Origin: a virus
Lineage: Duplodnaviria > Heunggongvirae > Uroviricota > Caudoviricetes
Virus record (IMG/VR): IMGVR_UViG_2541047875_000007
Span: 1-42,110 of that record
Direction: 5' to 3' (one strand)
Length of the DNA: 42,110 nt
A program made the position numbers and the translations under genes. Below the pieces are notes generated by a model. The model searched no databases. It was not told where the DNA came from and saw only the letters and a list, made by a program, of their open reading frames with translations. Below, piece by piece: positions 1-42,110 of the stretch; position 1 is the first letter of the stretch, and the number at the start of each line of letters is the position of its first letter.

Positions 1-1158
1 ATGCTCACCGTTAAGCAGATTGAAGCAGCAAAGCCGAAAGAAAAACCATACCGCCTACTCGATGGTAATGGCCTGTACCTTTATGTCCCTGTGTCAGGGA
101 AAAAGGTATGGCAGCTTCGCTACAAGATTGACGGTAAGGAGAAAATCCTGACCGTAGGAAAATATCCGCTTATGACTTTGCAGGAGGCAAGGGATAAAGC
201 ATGGACTGCGAGGAAAGACATCTCGGTTGGCATCGATCCGGTAAAAGCGAAAAAGGCTTCGTCTAACAACAATTCCTTTAGTGCGATTTACAAGGAATGG
301 TACGAGCACAAGAAGCAAGTCTGGTCAGTAGGCTATGCAACTGAACTTGCCAAAATGTTTGATGACGACATTTTACCCATCATCGGCGGTCTTGAGATTC
401 AGGATATTGAGCCGATGCAACTGCTGGAAGTAATCCGCAGATTTGAAGATCGCGGTGCAATGGAGCGAGCCAACAAAGCCCGCAGAAGATGCGGCGAGGT
501 TTTTCGTTACGCTATTGTCACCGGAAGGGCTAAATATAACCCGGCACCTGACCTTGCAGACGCCATGAAAGGATACCGCAAGAAGAACTTCCCGTTTCTT
601 CCAGCAGACCAGATCCCTGCATTCAACAAAGCACTGGCAACATTTTCAGGAAGCATCGTATCGCTCATTGCGACCAAAGTTTTACGCTACACAGCCCTAA
701 GAACGAAAGAGCTTCGTTCCATGCAATGGAAGAACGTCGATTTTGAAAACAGGATTATCACCATCGACGCCAGTGTGATGAAGGGGCGAAAAATTCATGT
801 GGTTCCTATGTCAGACCAGGTGATTGAACTTCTCACTACGCTAAGCTCAATCACTAAACCAGTGTCAGAGTTTGTTTTTGCCGGGCGCAACGATAAGAAG
901 AAGCCAATCTGCGAGAACGCGGTATTGCTTGTGATCAAACAAATTGGCTATGAAGGGCTGGAAAGCGGTCACGGATTCAGGCATGAATTCAGCACGATTA
1001 TGAACGAGCACGAATGGCCTGCTGATGCTATTGAAGTGCAACTGGCACATGCCAACGGCGGATCTGTGCGCGGTATTTACAACCATGCGCAATATCTCGA
1101 TAAGCGCAGGGAGATGATGCAGTGGTGGGCGGACTGGATTGATGAGAAGGTGGAGTGA
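1..1158 (+). CDS. int: Tyrosine integrase of the tRNA-associated P4/CP4-57-like family; ATG at window position 1
   Basis: 385-aa ORF; N-terminus MLTVKQIEAAKPKEKPYRLLDGNGLYLYV typical of the P4-type integrase arm-binding domain; C-terminal catalytic region with R...HxxR...Y pattern. Resembles the argW-associated prophage integrase (intS-like) from memory. Confidence 0.9.
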   Translation: MLTVKQIEAAKPKEKPYRLLDGNGLYLYVPVSGKKVWQLRYKIDGKEKILTVGKYPLMTLQEARDKAWTARKDISVGIDPVKAKKASSNNNSFSAIYKEWYEHKKQVWSVGYATELAKMFDDDILPIIGGLEIQDIEPMQLLEVIRRFEDRGAMERANKARRRCGEVFRYAIVTGRAKYNPAPDLADAMKGYRKKNFPFLPADQIPAFNKALATFSGSIVSLIATKVLRYTALRTKELRSMQWKNVDFENRIITIDASVMKGRKIHVVPMSDQVIELLTTLSSITKPVSEFVFAGRNDKKKPICENAVLLVIKQIGYEGLESGHGFRHEFSTIMNEHEWPADAIEVQLAHANGGSVRGIYNHAQYLDKRREMMQWWADWIDEKVE

Positions 1159-1182
1159 ACCACCTTAACCACTATCGAAGAG

Positions 1183-1216
1183 CACAAAGCCTTGCAATCC
1201 AGTGCAAAGCTTTGTG
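1183..1216. repeat. Nested inverted repeat (13-bp arms, one internal mismatch) 25 nt downstream of the int stop
   Basis: CACAAAGC-c-TTGCA / ATCCAG loop / TGCAA-a-GCTTTGTG read directly from the sequence. Confidence 0.5.
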
Positions 1217-1314
1217 TGTCTCAGTTTTGTTTCATAGGTAATCATGCGTTCACTACGATGCAAGAATCCATACCAAATTTTATTTAAAACTCACAAATAC
1301 ACTAGATAAAAACA

Positions 1315-1337
1315 ATCCCGCAGTTTTCATGCGGGAT
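1315..1337. terminator. Hairpin between the convergent int and tailspike genes; likely intrinsic terminator for the tailspike transcript, possibly bidirectional
   Basis: 8-bp stem ATCCCGCA/TGCGGGAT with 7-nt loop; on the minus strand it is followed by TGTTTTTAT. Confidence 0.5.
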
Positions 1338-1355
1338 ATACTGCATTTATTGCAA

Positions 1356-3839
1356 CTACATTGCCATTAATATAAACATAGCCAATTCGTCATAACGAAT
1401 TCCGTAGCGTCCACCTGCTTTTTTTACAAGAATCATATTTCCTGTTTTATATTGAGAATAAATTTTCTCACCTGTATCAGGATCTGTGCTCTCTTCAGTT
1501 ATCACCTCTTCATCCCATACGTCTGGCCATTCATCGTAACACCAAAAAGCATATTGCTCAGGATTTAAACCACGCTTTCTAAGAATATCTCCTACGGTTT
1601 GAGCGCCAACTCCAAAATGATACCTTGATAACTCCAATCCTTTAAAATTAATCGACTCATTAAACCTGAACTTGCATATAATTCCCTTTATTTCCAGCGC
1701 AGCATCACGCTCTGCCTGAGTAATGTCATATATTGTTTTAAGTGTTTCATCTGATGTGCTTATAGTCCCGGATGCAGAATAAATCTGAGCCCATCTAAAT
1801 GATGGTGCACCAAGAGATTTGCTGTTATCAATAATTGGTGAAAAATTACCTTTAATGGCAATATTTCCAGAGTCGCCGAATATATTAATAACTGTAGAGT
1901 CATCACCATGGTTTTTTACGCTTAAGTTTCTTGATGAAATATTTATATCTTTGTTATATCCACTAACATTAATCCATCTTTTACCATCAATGTGATACCC
2001 GTAAATATTTCCGTTTGATTGTTCGTCAGGTGACTCTCTAAGAACAATAGCATCTACTCCAGACGACCATTGTATTTTTGTATCTGTAGGCCTCCAGTTC
2101 TTTATAATGAACGAACCATCAGTAAACTCCGTTTTTATTTGTCTATTGTCTACAAATGCGTCTCTTGGTTTAAACTCACTTGTGTTAACGCTGCTCTGAA
2201 GATCAGAAGCAAAAAATCTAAGATTTCCTGTATAACCCTGAGTCTCGGTCAGGTTATACGCAATCATAATTCCATTTTCAAACTCAGATGATGTTATTTT
2301 AACATCACGGCAATCACCAAAAATGCAATTTCCTTTATCAAATGTTGTTTGAGCTTTGAATTTATCAAACCTTAAATTACGAACAGGGAAACCATCAACC
2401 TCTAATGCAAAGGATGCAGGAAGGCCAAAGTATTCTGATGGCTTACCTGATGTATGATCAAGAGTAGTGGCTACTGTATTCTCAAAAACAGTCCCGCTAA
2501 AATTATTACCAATTGACGGAAACCTGATTACACTTATTGTACCTTGTATTTCAGGAGAAATACCAGATAGTGTGATGTTAGTTCCATCAAATGATGCATC
2601 TGAATACGTATATACTGATTCACTGCCAGCAATTTTAAACTGTTTAACTGAAGTTATTCTCATCGACTTTTTATGTTTAAATGTCACTGAGCTTTCAGTA
2701 TTACTTACAAGATCAATCTGAGGGCTATTCCTTATCGCGATTCCTGACTGGACATAAACGTTATTAAAGTGCGTTTTTTCAGGATTTCCCTTCATTGAAA
2801 GGCTCCCGTCATTTTCTGTCAGTAGTAGTCCTTTTACCCTCCAATAGCCGACAATCTGTACGTTATCAATAACTGAATCACAGCTATCGTATACATGCAA
2901 CCCTATATCCCAGTTATCACCCAATGAATAAGAATCAGGGTTATTGTATCCTTCAATACCATTTTTACTTACCATTATTCTCAGATTGCGTAACTGTGAT
3001 GCCCTGTTGATACTAACAGCTACGCTCATGGCTTTTGGTGTAGCAGGAGTAACACCTACAGAATCTTCATTCGTAAACTCAGTGAACTTACAAGATATCC
3101 CTTCAACAATTTTAACCGGTCTTTCATTAGAGATGTTAAAAAAATATTTGTTTTTTTCTCCATCACCAGTAAATACAAGATGGGTTCCTTTACTCCAACT
3201 TTTTAATAATCTTTCAGGCGCTGGTCTATATGTATCCCAATAATCAATGCCAGATCCAACCAGTGAACACCCCTCAGGAATGTTAATATTCTTCTTGATG
3301 ATGCATATTCCTTCCGGAATTGTTATAACCGACCTTCCAGAGTTTAAAGCTTTAATAAAAGCATCTGAATCATCTGTTTCCCCATCTATTTTTGCTCCCC
3401 ACCCTCTAACATCTCCACAATCTCTCCATCGTGCCATCTGCAACTCAGGATATTTTTTAGCGCCATCTGGATCTTCTAATTGCTGCCGTAGCTGATCGGG
3501 GTCATACTTCAGCACATTGGGAAAATAAAACTGCTGCGCACCATACGCATCATAAACAGCCATAGAATGGCCTTGCACGGTAACGAATTTGGCAATCTGT
3601 CCGTTATATACCGGATATCCGGCAGCGTTAATGATGATTGGTTGCGAAACAGGAACGTGAGAGCCGTCTTCGTTCTCTACATAAACCTGAATCTGGTTTT
3701 CTGGATTTACCGGGTCAGTGTCAATTTTACCGATATAAATTTTGCCATTGGCATTTGCTTTAAACGAGCGAGCTAAAGTAAATAACTGACTTGGTTGTGA
3801 AACAACTACGTTGTATAATTGTTCTGGCATAATAAACAT
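1356..3839 (-). CDS. Tailspike protein: P22 gp9-type N-terminal head-binding domain, divergent central beta-helix receptor-binding domain, C-terminal intramolecular-chaperone (peptidase S74-like) domain
   Basis: 827-aa ORF. N-terminus [11 protein letters not shown]...[40 protein letters not shown]...[14 protein letters not shown] matches the P22/HK620/Sf6 tailspike head-binding domain. C-terminal region contains TSTSDETLK...[13 protein letters not shown]...[10 protein letters not shown] resembling the S74 chaperone motif. Confidence 0.9.
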
Positions 3840-3852
3840 TCCGGAGAAAATA

Positions 3853-4353
3853 ATGAGTAAGAGACGTCACGAGGTAGTAACTCGGGAGCGCCTTATGGAG
3901 GTTCTCGATTACAATAAAGAAACAGGAATTTTCACTTGGAAAAAGAAATTAAGCGCCAGAGGTGCTGTTGGGAAAGTTGCTGGCACAATTTCTTATGGAT
4001 ATAACGCAATTAATATTGATGGCGTAAGATATTTTGCACATAGACTTGCCTGGCTGTATGTATATGGCGAATGGCCCAAACAAGAGATTGACCACATTGA
4101 TAGAAACAGAAGAAATAACGCAATCTCAAACCTTAGGGATGTCAGCAGAGTCGTAAATGCATTAAATGTCGGACCTCGAAATAGCAATGCTGGAATCAAG
4201 GGGGTAACTTTCTGTCAAGCCAGAAATCAATGGCAAGCTCAGATAAATGTCTCAGGTAAAAACATAACCCTTGGGAGATTCAACACCATTGATGAAGCGG
4301 CTATAGCTTATAAGGCAGCAAACATGGTTGCTGACCATCTGTTGAGTAGGTAA
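3853..4353 (+). CDS. HNH endonuclease with C-terminal AP2-like DNA-binding domain (homing-endonuclease-like)
   Basis: ORF-track ORF 3811-4353 trimmed to ATG 3853 preceded by GGAG. Contains [13 protein letters not shown]...[18 protein letters not shown] (HNH) and GVTF...QWQAQI...[16 protein letters not shown] (AP2-like). Confidence 0.7.
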
Positions 4354-39630: not shown

Positions 39631-39652
39631 GCCGCCTGATGGCGGTTTTTTA
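39631..39652 (+). terminator. Intrinsic terminator
   Basis: GCCGCC-TGAT-GGCGG followed by TTTTTTATT. Confidence 0.55.
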
Positions 39653-39665
39653 TTGGAGACAAGAA

Positions 39666-40010
39666 ATGTCAGATTTGGCTATGAAGATTTTGAAATGGCA
39701 AACGACTGGCGATGTTGGCATCAGTAGCGCAACTCTTGCCTCAATCGCATGTGGACTGAAAAAGAATATCTATGGTCATCACTTCGGCGCTCCACATGAC
39801 GCAGCAGATTTCCGACGATGCGTTGCACTTGTTGAGCAGATTCCAGAAGTCAGAGATTCATTCGACAAGGTTGCAAAGCGTGTTCCGGCATTCAAAGGCA
39901 TTCTCAACGAATGGGATTCCCTCGTTGCTCTGTTGAAGTCTGAAATGAAGATACACGGAAACAAAGCACCAGAGACTTACAGAAGAATTAGCGAGTTACG
40001 CAAGGATTAA
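39666..40010 (+). CDS. Hypothetical protein (114 aa)
   Basis: ATG 39666 with GGAG 7 nt upstream. Confidence 0.55.
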   Translation: MSDLAMKILKWQTTGDVGISSATLASIACGLKKNIYGHHFGAPHDAADFRRCVALVEQIPEVRDSFDKVAKRVPAFKGILNEWDSLVALLKSEMKIHGNKAPETYRRISELRKD

Positions 40011-40068: not shown

Positions 40069-40089
40069 GCCGCATCAATGCGGTTTTTT
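40069..40089 (+). terminator. Intrinsic terminator upstream of xis
   Basis: CCGCAT-CAA-TGCGG followed by TTTTTTATT. Confidence 0.55.
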
Positions 40090-40098
40090 ATTACCTGA

Positions 40099-40115
40099 TT
40101 TGCAGGTTCGATTCC
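40099..40115 (+). other. tRNA-derived fragment (T-arm 5' strand plus T-loop), not a complete tRNA
   Basis: TTTGCAGGTTCGATTCC contains the canonical GGTTCGATTCC T-loop; no complementary T-stem or acceptor stem follows. Confidence 0.4.
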
Positions 40116-40134
40116 CTATTCGGAGATAGCACTC

Positions 40135-40335
40135 ATGCAACACGAACTACAGCCTGATTCACTGGTTGATTTGAAATTCATCATGGCCGATACTGGCTTT
40201 GGTAAAACCTTCATCTACGACCGGATTAAGTCCGGCGACCTGCCAAAAGCCAAAGTTATCCACGGGCGAGCAAGATGGTTATATCGTGACCATTGTGAAT
40301 TCAAAAATAAGCTCTTAAGCCGCGCCAATGGGTAA
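40135..40335 (+). CDS. xis: AlpA-family excisionase / DNA-binding regulator
   Basis: 66 aa; ...LKFIMADTGFGKTFIYDRIKSGDLPKAKVIHGRARWLYRD... HTH of the AlpA/Xis type; GGAG upstream; lies next to the att core. Confidence 0.75.
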   Translation: MQHELQPDSLVDLKFIMADTGFGKTFIYDRIKSGDLPKAKVIHGRARWLYRDHCEFKNKLLSRANG

Positions 40336-40408
40336 AATAGCGGGTAAAATATTTCTCACATCTAAAAAACACCATTCTAATCAATCCCCTGCCGCGTCAA
40401 GTAGATGT

Positions 40409-40423
40409 CTGCAGGGGACACCA
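40409..40423 (+). other. Putative attR core: 15-bp copy of the 3' end of a tRNA-Arg (argW-type) gene including CCA
   Basis: CTGCAGGGGACACCA matches the remembered 3' end of E. coli argW; no upstream tRNA body is present, so it is a partial copy as expected at the tRNA-distal prophage junction. Confidence 0.55.
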
Positions 40424-40862
40424 GATACCCTTCAAACGATATCTACCTTCACCCCGTAAAAGATAAGTTTGGCAGCACATTTGCCCTATCTACTCATTTT
40501 TCCTGCAACAGGTTGAAATCTCAACACGGTCAGAAAACGCTGATGACTAAACAGCCCTGGGCTGGGCGATGTAACCATCACACACAATCCTGATCGCGAA
40601 ATATGGCGTGACTTGATACTTCACTCCACAATGCTTTCCTTGATGAATTCGCAGGCCCGTGATACACGGGACAGGTCGCTGAATTACGACAATGCCCTGG
40701 AAATCAGCGAGCCGTGTATCCGGAGTACATTTGAGCGACTGTACCAGAACATGAATGAGGCGTTTGGATTAGGCGATTATTAGCAGGGCTAAGCATTTTG
40801 GTATTATTATTTTCCGGTTGAGGGATATAGAGCTATCGACAACAACCGGAAAAAGTTTACGT

Positions 40863-42110
40863 TTATATTGCTGAAGGTACTGGCGTTTCCATCACTATTT
40901 GCTCACGTTTTTTACTCAGGAAGAAAATGCCAAATAGCAACATCAGGCAGACAATACCCGAAATTGCGAAAAAAACCGTCTGGTAGCCTGCGTGGTCAAA
41001 GAGTATCCCAGTCGGCGTTGAAAGCAGCACAATCCCCAACGAACTGGCAATTTGAAAACCAATCAGAAAGATCGTCGACGACAGGCGCTTATCAAAATTT
41101 GCCACGCTGTATTTGAAGACGGATATGACACAAAGTGGAACCTCAATGGCATGTAACAGCTTCACTAATGAAATAATCCAGGGGTTAACGAATAGCGCGC
41201 AGGAAAGGATACGCAACGCCATAATCACAACACCGATAAGTAATGCATTTTTTGGCCCTACCCGATTCACAAAGAAAGGAATAATCGCCATGCACAGCGC
41301 TTCGAGTACCACCTGGAATGAGTTGAGATAACCATACAGGCGCGTTCCTACATCGTGGGATTCGAATAAACCTGCATAAAAGACAGGAAAGAGTTGTTGA
41401 TCAAAAATGTTATAGAAAGACCACGTCCCCACAATAAATATGACGAAAACCCAGAAGTTTCGATCCTTGAAAACTGCGATAAAATCCTCTTTTTTTACCC
41501 CTCCCACATCCGCCGCTACGCACTGGTGTTCCTGCTCTTTAAAACGCATGTTGATCATCATAAATACAGCGCCAAATAGAGAGACCAACCAGAAGTTGAT
41601 ATGGGGACTGATACTAAAAAATATGCCAGCAAAGAATGCGCCAATAGCATAGCCAAAAGATCCCCAGGCGCGCGCTGTTCCATATTCGAAATGAAAATTT
41701 CGCGCCATTTTTTCGGTGAAGCTGTCAAGCAAACCGCATCCCGCCAGATACCCCAGACCAAAAAAGAGCGCCCCCAGAATTAAACCTACAGAAAAATTGC
41801 TTTGCAGTAACGGTTCATAAACGTAAATCATAAACGGTCCGGTCAAGACCAAGATGAAACTCATACACCAGATGAGCGGTTTCTTCAGACCGAGTTTATC
41901 CTGAACGATGCCGTAGAACATCATAAATAGAATGCTGGTAAACTGGTTGACCGAATAAAGTGTACCTAATTCCGTCCCTGTCAACCCTAGATGTCCTTTC
42001 AGCCAAATAGCGTATAATGACCACCACAGCGACCAGGAAATAAAAAAGAGAAATGAGTAACTGGATGCAAAACGATAGTACGCATTTCTGAATGGAATAT
42101 TCAGTGCCAT
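40863..42110 (-). CDS. cscB: LacY-family oligosaccharide:H+ symporter, sucrose permease CscB-like (host gene flanking the prophage)
   Basis: 415 aa, 12-TM MFS protein; sequence recalled as CscB; the csc locus is known to lie near argW in sucrose-positive E. coli. Confidence 0.7.
   Translation of the reverse strand: MALNIPFRNAYYRFASSYSFLFFISWSLWWSLYAIWLKGHLGLTGTELGTLYSVNQFTSILFMMFYGIVQDKLGLKKPLIWCMSFILVLTGPFMIYVYEPLLQSNFSVGLILGALFFGLGYLAGCGLLDSFTEKMARNFHFEYGTARAWGSFGYAIGAFFAGIFFSISPHINFWLVSLFGAVFMMINMRFKEQEHQCVAADVGGVKKEDFIAVFKDRNFWVFVIFIVGTWSFYNIFDQQLFPVFYAGLFESHDVGTRLYGYLNSFQVVLEALCMAIIPFFVNRVGPKNALLIGVVIMALRILSCALFVNPWIISLVKLLHAIEVPLCVISVFKYSVANFDKRLSSTIFLIGFQIASSLGIVLLSTPTGILFDHAGYQTVFFAISGIVCLMLLFGIFFLSKKREQIVMETPVPSAI

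Follow-up and report, generated by a model that had tools for sequence, protein, structure and literature searches.

A conserved copy of the argW T arm precedes torI in a P22-like prophage and may be a regulatory site

Two short sequences that match the 3′ part of the tRNA-Arg gene argW lie on either side of torI, the excisionase (xis) gene of a P22-like prophage. The explanation that we favor overall, by a modest degree, is that the right-hand sequence is the attR core and that the left-hand one is a separate copy of the T arm that has been kept by selection, putatively as a regulatory site. The 11-nt T-arm sequence is kept before xis across enterobacteria and has so far been annotated only as a guessed cII promoter.

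Prophage and recombination module

The window, that is, the whole stretch of 42,110 nt that was analyzed (positions 1 to 42,110 of IMG/VR record IMGVR_UViG_2541047875_000007), holds a prophage of the P22-like type whose nearest relatives include phiv205-1, Kapi1, and CUS-3 and which occupies argW by means of an IntS/TorI module. Its virion genes are 95 to 96% identical to those of these three P22-like argW phages. At the left prophage end, the plus-strand gene intS (positions 1 to 1158) encodes a tyrosine integrase with the Pfam domains Arm-DNA-bind_3, Phage_int_M, and Phage_integrase, and its identification is supported by the intS annotation in identical genomes and by attL in the Combat2C1 genome. 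The integrase is P4-like, has an arm-binding N-terminal domain, and adjoins argW in genomes that are 100% identical. The window begins at the intS ATG (position 1), and attL and argW lie just outside it.

At the prophage end opposite intS, the plus-strand ORF torI (40135 to 40335) encodes a TorI-type recombination directionality factor (RDF) of 66 amino acids. The torI DNA is about 97% identical to hkaC of HK620 and gene 18 of Sf6, and the RDF proteins of these two phages are 100% identical to TorI (PMC3509656). An earlier first-pass annotation of this DNA had called xis AlpA-type, and RefSeq genomes, in which the gene is annotated as TorI or AlpA family, agree; in Pfam, the product gives only a subthreshold match to HTH_17. 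A further ORF of 43 amino acids (40328 to 40459), the counterpart of hkaB of HK620 and gene 17 of Sf6, overlaps the torI stop codon, crosses the attR core, and ends in host DNA, so that its C terminus depends on the integration state of the phage. This small ORF has no match in Pfam.

Just left of the recombination module, two terminators with 83% identity (39631 to 39654 and 40069 to 40092) lie 438 nt apart and bracket an extra ORF of 114 amino acids (39666 to 40010), which has no match in Pfam and is absent from HK620 and Sf6. This 438-bp gene-plus-terminator insert looks like a moron-type insertion. The second terminator, an intrinsic plus-strand terminator with a T-run that was found by a terminator scan, lies directly left of the T-arm copy.

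Host DNA, identical to the sequence that follows argW at an empty site, occupies positions 40424 to 42110. It carries a minus-strand gene for a LacY-family permease (40863 to 42110; Pfam LacY_symp), presumably CscB-like, which lies 440 bp right of the prophage. Because of this permease, the argW-dsdC island of the host strain is therefore read as carrying sugar-utilization genes instead of the K-12 arrangement.

Two exact matches to argW

The argW reference comes from an E. coli genome whose attachment site is empty (L004, positions 1441 to 1515), in which the 3′ end of the gene reads GGGCTAATTGCAGGTTCGATTCCTGCAGGGGACACCA and is followed by GATACCCTTCAAACG. Exact-match mapping places argW positions 46 to 61 at 40100 to 40115 of the window (the left fragment, or T-arm copy; TTGCAGGTTCGATTCC, 16 nt) and argW positions 61 to 75 at 40409 to 40423 (the right fragment; CTGCAGGGGACACCA, the last 15 nt of the gene), both on the plus strand, and gives no further long argW match in this region. 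Together the two pieces tile argW, sharing a single base, and the 293 bp between them contain torI. The first-pass annotation, which had described two fragments of the 3′ part of argW about 290 bp apart with xis between them, was thus correct in both respects; it had given the left fragment as a 17-mer starting at 40099, of which the 16 nt from 40100 to 40115 match, whereas position 40099 is T where argW has A.

The number of argW 16-mers expected by chance is 0.0012 in the whole window and 1e-5 within 400 nt of the core, and the low figure for the window means that the left match is not due to chance. Each of the two motifs is single in the window, even when three mismatches are allowed. ARAGORN finds no tRNA gene in the window, and Rfam gives nothing except noise at an E value of ≤10; on these searches, a tRNA gene, a pseudogene, or a tRNA-like RNA at the locus was rejected.

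The right fragment as the attR core

The right fragment is almost certainly the attR core. Genomes with an empty site align to the window from exactly 40409 onward, and the sequence right of 40423 is identical to that after argW in the empty site. The genome Combat2C1, which is 100% identical over positions 1 to 3000 of the window, has a complete argW 161 nt before the intS start codon, and the 3′ end of this gene is that same 15-mer (+T); between the two ends, its prophage is about 2.4 kb longer than that of the window. The core CTGCAGGGGACACCA(T), which is the argW 3′ end, is present at both junctions, at attR in the window and at attL as read only in the genome identical over positions 1 to 3000, and this bears out the earlier proposal that the 15-mer is an att core repeated at the int-proximal junction.

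In KplE1, the core is the 16-nt CTGCAGGGGACACCAT, and the module order is attL-intS...torI-attR (PMC2951348). The GenBank records of HK620 and Sf6 annotate the 16-mer CTGCAGGGGACACCAT as the "attP core" between hkaC or gene 18 and int. An attP between int and xis has been described for Kapi1, Sf6, HK620, and KplE1 (PMC8787464), and the placement of attP between xis and int in the circular phage by the first-pass annotation agrees with that study and with the HK620 and Sf6 records. The attR, attL, attB, and attP sequences were all read directly and agree with PMC2951348 and PMC8787464. Taken from the present sequences or from published work, IntS recombines the 15/16-nt cores, TorI directs excision, and the phage copy of the core restores argW (PMC2951348, PMC3509656, PMC8787464). 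The right fragment is the original argW 3′ end, left after IntS strand exchange within TGCAGGG, and the phage brings an identical 3′ end at attL, so that the tRNA gene stays intact. For this phage group, there is nothing new in the att core, the TorI excisionase, or the int...xis layout, all of which are textbook features.

A phage-side core-type half-site, C (GATGTC, plus strand, 40404 to 40409), forms with GACACC an imperfect inverted repeat around the 7-nt TGCAGGG, as read from the sequence. From this symmetry and from the start of the identity between attP and attB, we infer a 7-nt overlap, TGCAGGG, at 40410 to 40416. Two direct, plus-strand GGGTAAAATA repeats in the P arm (40330 to 40351, with starts at 40330 and 40342), found by a repeat search, are probably IntS arm-type sites; they are annotated as "attP" repeat regions in HK620 and are invariant across lineages. 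In PMC2951348, the GTTCG repeats on the P′ arm are identified as TorI boxes. The P arm also contains CCCCTGC (40386 to 40392), an inverted repeat of GCAGGGG in the core (40411 to 40417) about 18 nt away, and the pair is kept in most relatives (AATCCCCTGC...TGCAGGGG). This P-arm element could be an extra integrase site or an IHF-related site.

A 135-bp attR with the left primer CTCTTAAGCCGCGCCAATGG suffices for excision in vitro (PMC3509656). The primer corresponds to positions 40312 to 40331 of the window and starts 197 nt right of the T-arm motif, and the motif therefore lies outside the minimal att site. The motif was also considered as an IntS arm-type site and was rejected in that role, the arm repeats being GGGTAAAA.

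Conservation of the T-arm motif upstream of xis

The conserved core of the T-arm copy is GGTTCGATTCC at 40105 to 40115, with the pentamer GTTCG at 40106 to 40110. Genomes and viral contigs yielded 53 distinct xis loci that could be evaluated; GGTTCGATTCC with up to two mismatches was present in 36 of them, at −27 to −43 from the xis ATG and mostly at −29 or −30. The carriers belong to E. coli, Citrobacter-like, Serratia, Pantoea, Edwardsiella, and Erwinia lineages, and the invariant part of the motif is GTTCGATT(C/T)CC. When nine lineages with <92% identity between their Xis proteins are compared pairwise, the motif GTTCGATTYCC has an identity of 0.93, and its flanks have 0.49 (10 nt) and 0.38 (6 nt); within xis, the values are 0.57 for the third codon position and 0.85 for the first two. 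These figures carry an ascertainment bias through the choice of loci having the motif. In the lineages without the motif, the upstream regions are unalignable and are not decayed motifs. We infer that the motif core is under purifying selection in most lineages.

Tandem duplicates of the motif arose independently in two lineages, with a distance from GTTCG to GTTCG of 16 nt in Midgardsormr38-like Erwinia phages and of 13 nt in viral contig L126. A motif duplicated upstream of xis can be seen at positions 1984 to 2016 of locus L005 and in L129, L130, and L133. In Dryocola sp. BD626 (L015, positions 2440 to 2500), a deletion of 23 nt between CTGG repeats takes out precisely the motif and leaves the upstream terminator, the Shine-Dalgarno sequence, and a full-length xis. 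The spacing from the motif to the GGAG of the Shine-Dalgarno sequence varies (4, 6, 7, or 13 nt), and thus no full core-like site is conserved. Within E. coli, single-nucleotide polymorphisms (SNPs) are about as frequent in the motif as in its flanks.

By alignment, the motif is the first conserved element, or the left edge, of the xis-attP-int module. HK022, HK97, and 434, which have other int modules, match the window only up to 40088 to 40092, the terminator, and an Erwinia phage with 76% identity begins to match it at 40103. Pantoea relatives without the motif (L022, L023, and L025) have the short palindromes GTGACAGCGTCATGTCAC and TGTTGTCATATACCAACA 20 to 45 nt upstream of xis, and palindromes in the usual place of the motif hint that this region may be a regulatory slot.

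These patterns have to be weighed against a serious rival, namely, that the motif is a functionless fossil, a scar of abnormal recombination or of a transduction-like capture of argW at the module boundary, which persists by linkage. The location of the motif exactly at a mosaic boundary and outside the attR that works in vitro is what a scar would predict, and the lack of excess constraint within E. coli, the several lineages that do without the motif, and its clean deletion in Dryocola speak for the same account. However, a fossil fits poorly with an 11-nt core that remains at 0.93 identity where the adjacent bases and the xis third positions have fallen to 0.4 to 0.57, with independent duplication in two lineages, and with a fixed position relative to the ATG. 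We consider the fossil account unlikely, and it is a stronger competitor than the promoter and RNA-level explanations discussed below.

The left fragment as a probable separate T-arm copy

The first-pass annotation had read the two fragments as parts of one split tRNA. On this reading, an ancestral attP ran contiguously from the T arm to CCA, and xis and the P-arm sites were inserted between GATTCC and TGCAGG. The fragments do tile argW with just 1 base of overlap, and the argW identity of the left fragment stops only 0 to 2 nt from the inferred strand-exchange boundary. The sequence that abuts the core, however, resembles a T-loop in its own right. Across 20 lineages, an average of 5.85 of the 11 nt directly before TGCAGGG agree with the argW T-loop GGTTCGATTCC, where random sequence would give 2.75; the agreement clusters on TTCGAT, and the consensus is TTCGATGTA|TGCAGGG. 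Because of this agreement, the att core already has a contiguous, diverged T-loop. In the E. coli group, the C-site sequence has drifted to GTAGATGTC.

A search of IMG/VR viral contigs for an unsplit attP with the contiguous 25-mer GGTTCGATTCCTGCAGGGGACACCA gave 120 matches, and all 112 that were evaluable are whole tRNA-Arg genes (attL or attB); no unsplit attP exists among these 112 contiguous occurrences or in a set of more than 50 xis loci. Relatives that share the xis-core-int layout do without any upstream fragment, as in Klebsiella phage RCIP0114, Erwinia phage Eho49, Tatumella, Rouxiella, and several Pantoea prophages. A single insertion event would also need to have brought in a working C site together with the arm sites. 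Only the E. coli group keeps the argW-specific TTGC; elsewhere CCAGG, ACAGG, TCAGG, or GCCGG is found instead, and in Serratia and Pantoea the upstream copy extends into the 3′ half of the T stem (GATTCCTG) and thereby overlaps the core copy instead of complementing it. Seen across these lineages, the perfect tiling in E. coli is partly a lineage accident.

A split of an ancestral attP is accordingly improbable, and the left fragment is probably a separate, conserved T-arm copy and not a split half. Of the two accounts in the first-pass annotation, the insertion of a xis segment into a longer tRNA-homologous att region is not supported, since the core has its own adjacent T-loop-like segment and no unsplit relative was found. 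The other, in which attP carries an ancestral tRNA fragment upstream of xis, holds only weakly: although the fragment is old and derives from a tRNA, about 200 bp separate it from the attR that is sufficient in vitro. More generally, short tRNA matches near att sites should not be taken as "split tRNAs."

E. coli F404 (NZ_OY754364.1; L003, positions 3020 to 3060) has a junction in which the T-arm copy plus CTATTCG is fused to GACACCAT and a K-12-type flank. The T-arm copy and 7 nt are kept, torI and the core TGCAGGG are deleted, and the junction is in register with the 7-nt overlap model (GATTCC-N7-GACACC). It fits either IntS recombination at the motif as a pseudo-att site or a deletion at a GGA microhomology, and no intS or argW lies within 50 kb in this prophage. 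As an unsplit or ancestral form, the F404 junction was rejected and is regarded as a secondary deletion, being found in 1 of 5,426 genomes and in a rearranged prophage without intS nearby. Traces of a tandem duplication flanking both T-loop copies were also sought; only CCTG-N9-TTCGAT is shared, in some enteric lineages, and it was judged to be due to chance.

Possible functions of the T-arm motif

The T-arm motif (GTTCGATTCC, within 40085 to 40140) is proposed, tentatively, as a candidate protein-binding site that regulates torI. It could be a putative IntS/TorI site because it is identical to half-site B, contains the GTTCG pentamer, and sits between the terminator and the torI Shine-Dalgarno sequence, a GGAG on the plus strand at 40122 to 40125, 6 nt past the T-arm copy, that was read from the sequence and is kept in relatives. 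The core-binding domain of IntS, TorI, or both would bind the motif and modulate torI expression and hence the directionality of recombination. A more specific form of this proposal, in which the exact tRNA-side half of attB has been kept before xis as a regulatory site and integrase and/or TorI sets the Xis level, is possible, if rather doubtful. If true, it would couple target-site recognition to the control of recombination direction.

The sequence TTCGATTCC within the motif equals the tRNA-side half-site B of attB, agrees with the C consensus TTCGATGTA at 6 of 9 positions, and has no conserved partner half-site. A lone core-type half-site is usually a weak target for an integrase such as lambda Int, and this counts against a regulatory site, as do the several lineages without the motif and the Dryocola loss with xis intact. 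The pentamer GTTCG is invariant in the motif, and the base that follows is always A, unlike the mapped TorI boxes; this A, against C or T in the P′-arm boxes, and SNPs in E. coli that are as frequent in the motif as in the flanks also weigh against regulation by IntS or TorI.

The torI promoter, PtorI, and the control of torI have been described as uncharacterized (PMC2951348). A T-arm similarity upstream of torI is not mentioned in PMC2951348, PMC3509656, or PMC8787464. The novelty is modest: the conserved T-arm motif before torI is one small unreported detail of a known system. A conserved site at −30 of the torI start that matches sequences recognized by IntS and TorI nevertheless offers a concrete hypothesis for torI control.

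A different function has been annotated at this place. The HK620 record marks a "phage integration" promoter (L002, positions 1522 to 1560) with a cII site at 1523 to 1535, and the annotation has been copied in Sf6. In such a cII-activated integration promoter, pI, TTGC-N5-TTGC would be the CII box and the T-arm-like bases would be promoter spacer, and a transcript starting past the torI Shine-Dalgarno sequence would presumably give Int without Xis, which is biologically sensible. The canonical cII box is TTGC-N6-TTGC. The spacing here is N5, not N6, and the first box is TTAC, not TTGC, in the window and in about two-fifths of the E. coli copies, so the window reads TTAC-N5-TTGC; in other lineages the TTGC repeats are not conserved, whereas the supposed spacer is. 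A cII box was therefore rejected on these grounds, and pI is an improbable explanation of the motif. A scan for a sigma-70 promoter over the motif found none, and that candidate was rejected.

The least probable explanation is that the torI leader contains an RNA element, which would be a hairpin like a T arm or a pairing of UUCC with the GGAG Shine-Dalgarno sequence that throttles Xis translation: a perfect hairpin of 6 bp (GACAGG/CCTGTC) can be drawn for the copies in Edwardsiella and P. stewartii, AUUUCC pairs with GGAGAU in the GATTTCC variants, and motif-free Pantoea lineages have palindromes in the same place, but fold energies are no different from those of shuffled sequences in 11 of 13 lineages (z scores of −1.2 to +0.1), the stem is not kept in E. 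coli, Erwinia, or Serratia, and Rfam gives no match. With z scores near zero in most lineages, a conserved hairpin or Shine-Dalgarno sequestration was rejected.

Origin of the T-arm copy

The match between the motif and the argW T arm covers 13 nt (CAGGTTCGATTCC) in most lineages and 16 nt in E. coli, and every copy has the GATT loop of the argW type. Since it matches the T arm of the very tRNA that the phage targets, and always with this loop, the motif very likely derives from argW or an att site. Its origin would probably be an old rearrangement or duplication of the att site or the acquisition of tRNA DNA from the host at the edge of the module, for which abnormal excision after recombination at a secondary site is a candidate route. 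In Proteus relatives (L024, positions 2501 to 4067, and L213), xis lies beside int in convergent orientation, next to a tRNA-Arg(CCT) gene and without the motif. Members of the wider family therefore do not all share the xis-attP-int layout.

Comparison with known systems

The argW module of KplE1 (CPS-53), HK620, Sf6, CUS-3, and Kapi1 has the same 15/16-nt core as the present prophage, and DNA identity to HK620 and Sf6 is about 97% from 40069/40080 to 40423. As in the KplE1/HK620/Sf6 group, intS and torI lie at opposite prophage ends with attP between xis and int, and the GGGTAAAA repeats and the attL GTTCG boxes are the same. The att machinery is thus no different from that of this group, whereas the rest of the prophage is another mosaic, with the 438-bp insert left of the module.

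The pI promoter of lambda holds a comparable position upstream of int across attP, and HK620 was annotated by analogy. However, pI of lambda lies inside xis, whereas the site described here lies before xis and its cII box is imperfect and not conserved.

The TorI boxes I1 to I5 on attL are 8-mers around GTTCG, GATCG, and GTCCG (PMC2951348), and the consensus of the P′-arm boxes in nine attP and attL sequences is (C/T)AGTTCG(C/T). The T-arm motif has the perfect GTTCG in common with these boxes, and some relatives read CAGTTCGA. In the TorI boxes the pentamer is followed by C or T, whereas in the T-arm motif it is always followed by A and the conservation extends 5 to 6 nt further (ATTYCC). The TorI boxes are on attL, and the T-arm motif is on the other arm, far from the core.

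In tRNA-integrating elements, the phage copy of the tRNA 3′ end restores the gene, and integrase half-sites overlap symmetric tRNA arms. Reiter in 1989 and Williams in 2002 are said to have described tRNA-derived identity blocks in the attP of such elements. The present prophage likewise has an identity block, and it has in addition an extra T-arm copy 293 bp off, beyond xis, which, unlike the identity blocks of attP, plays no part in restoring the tRNA.
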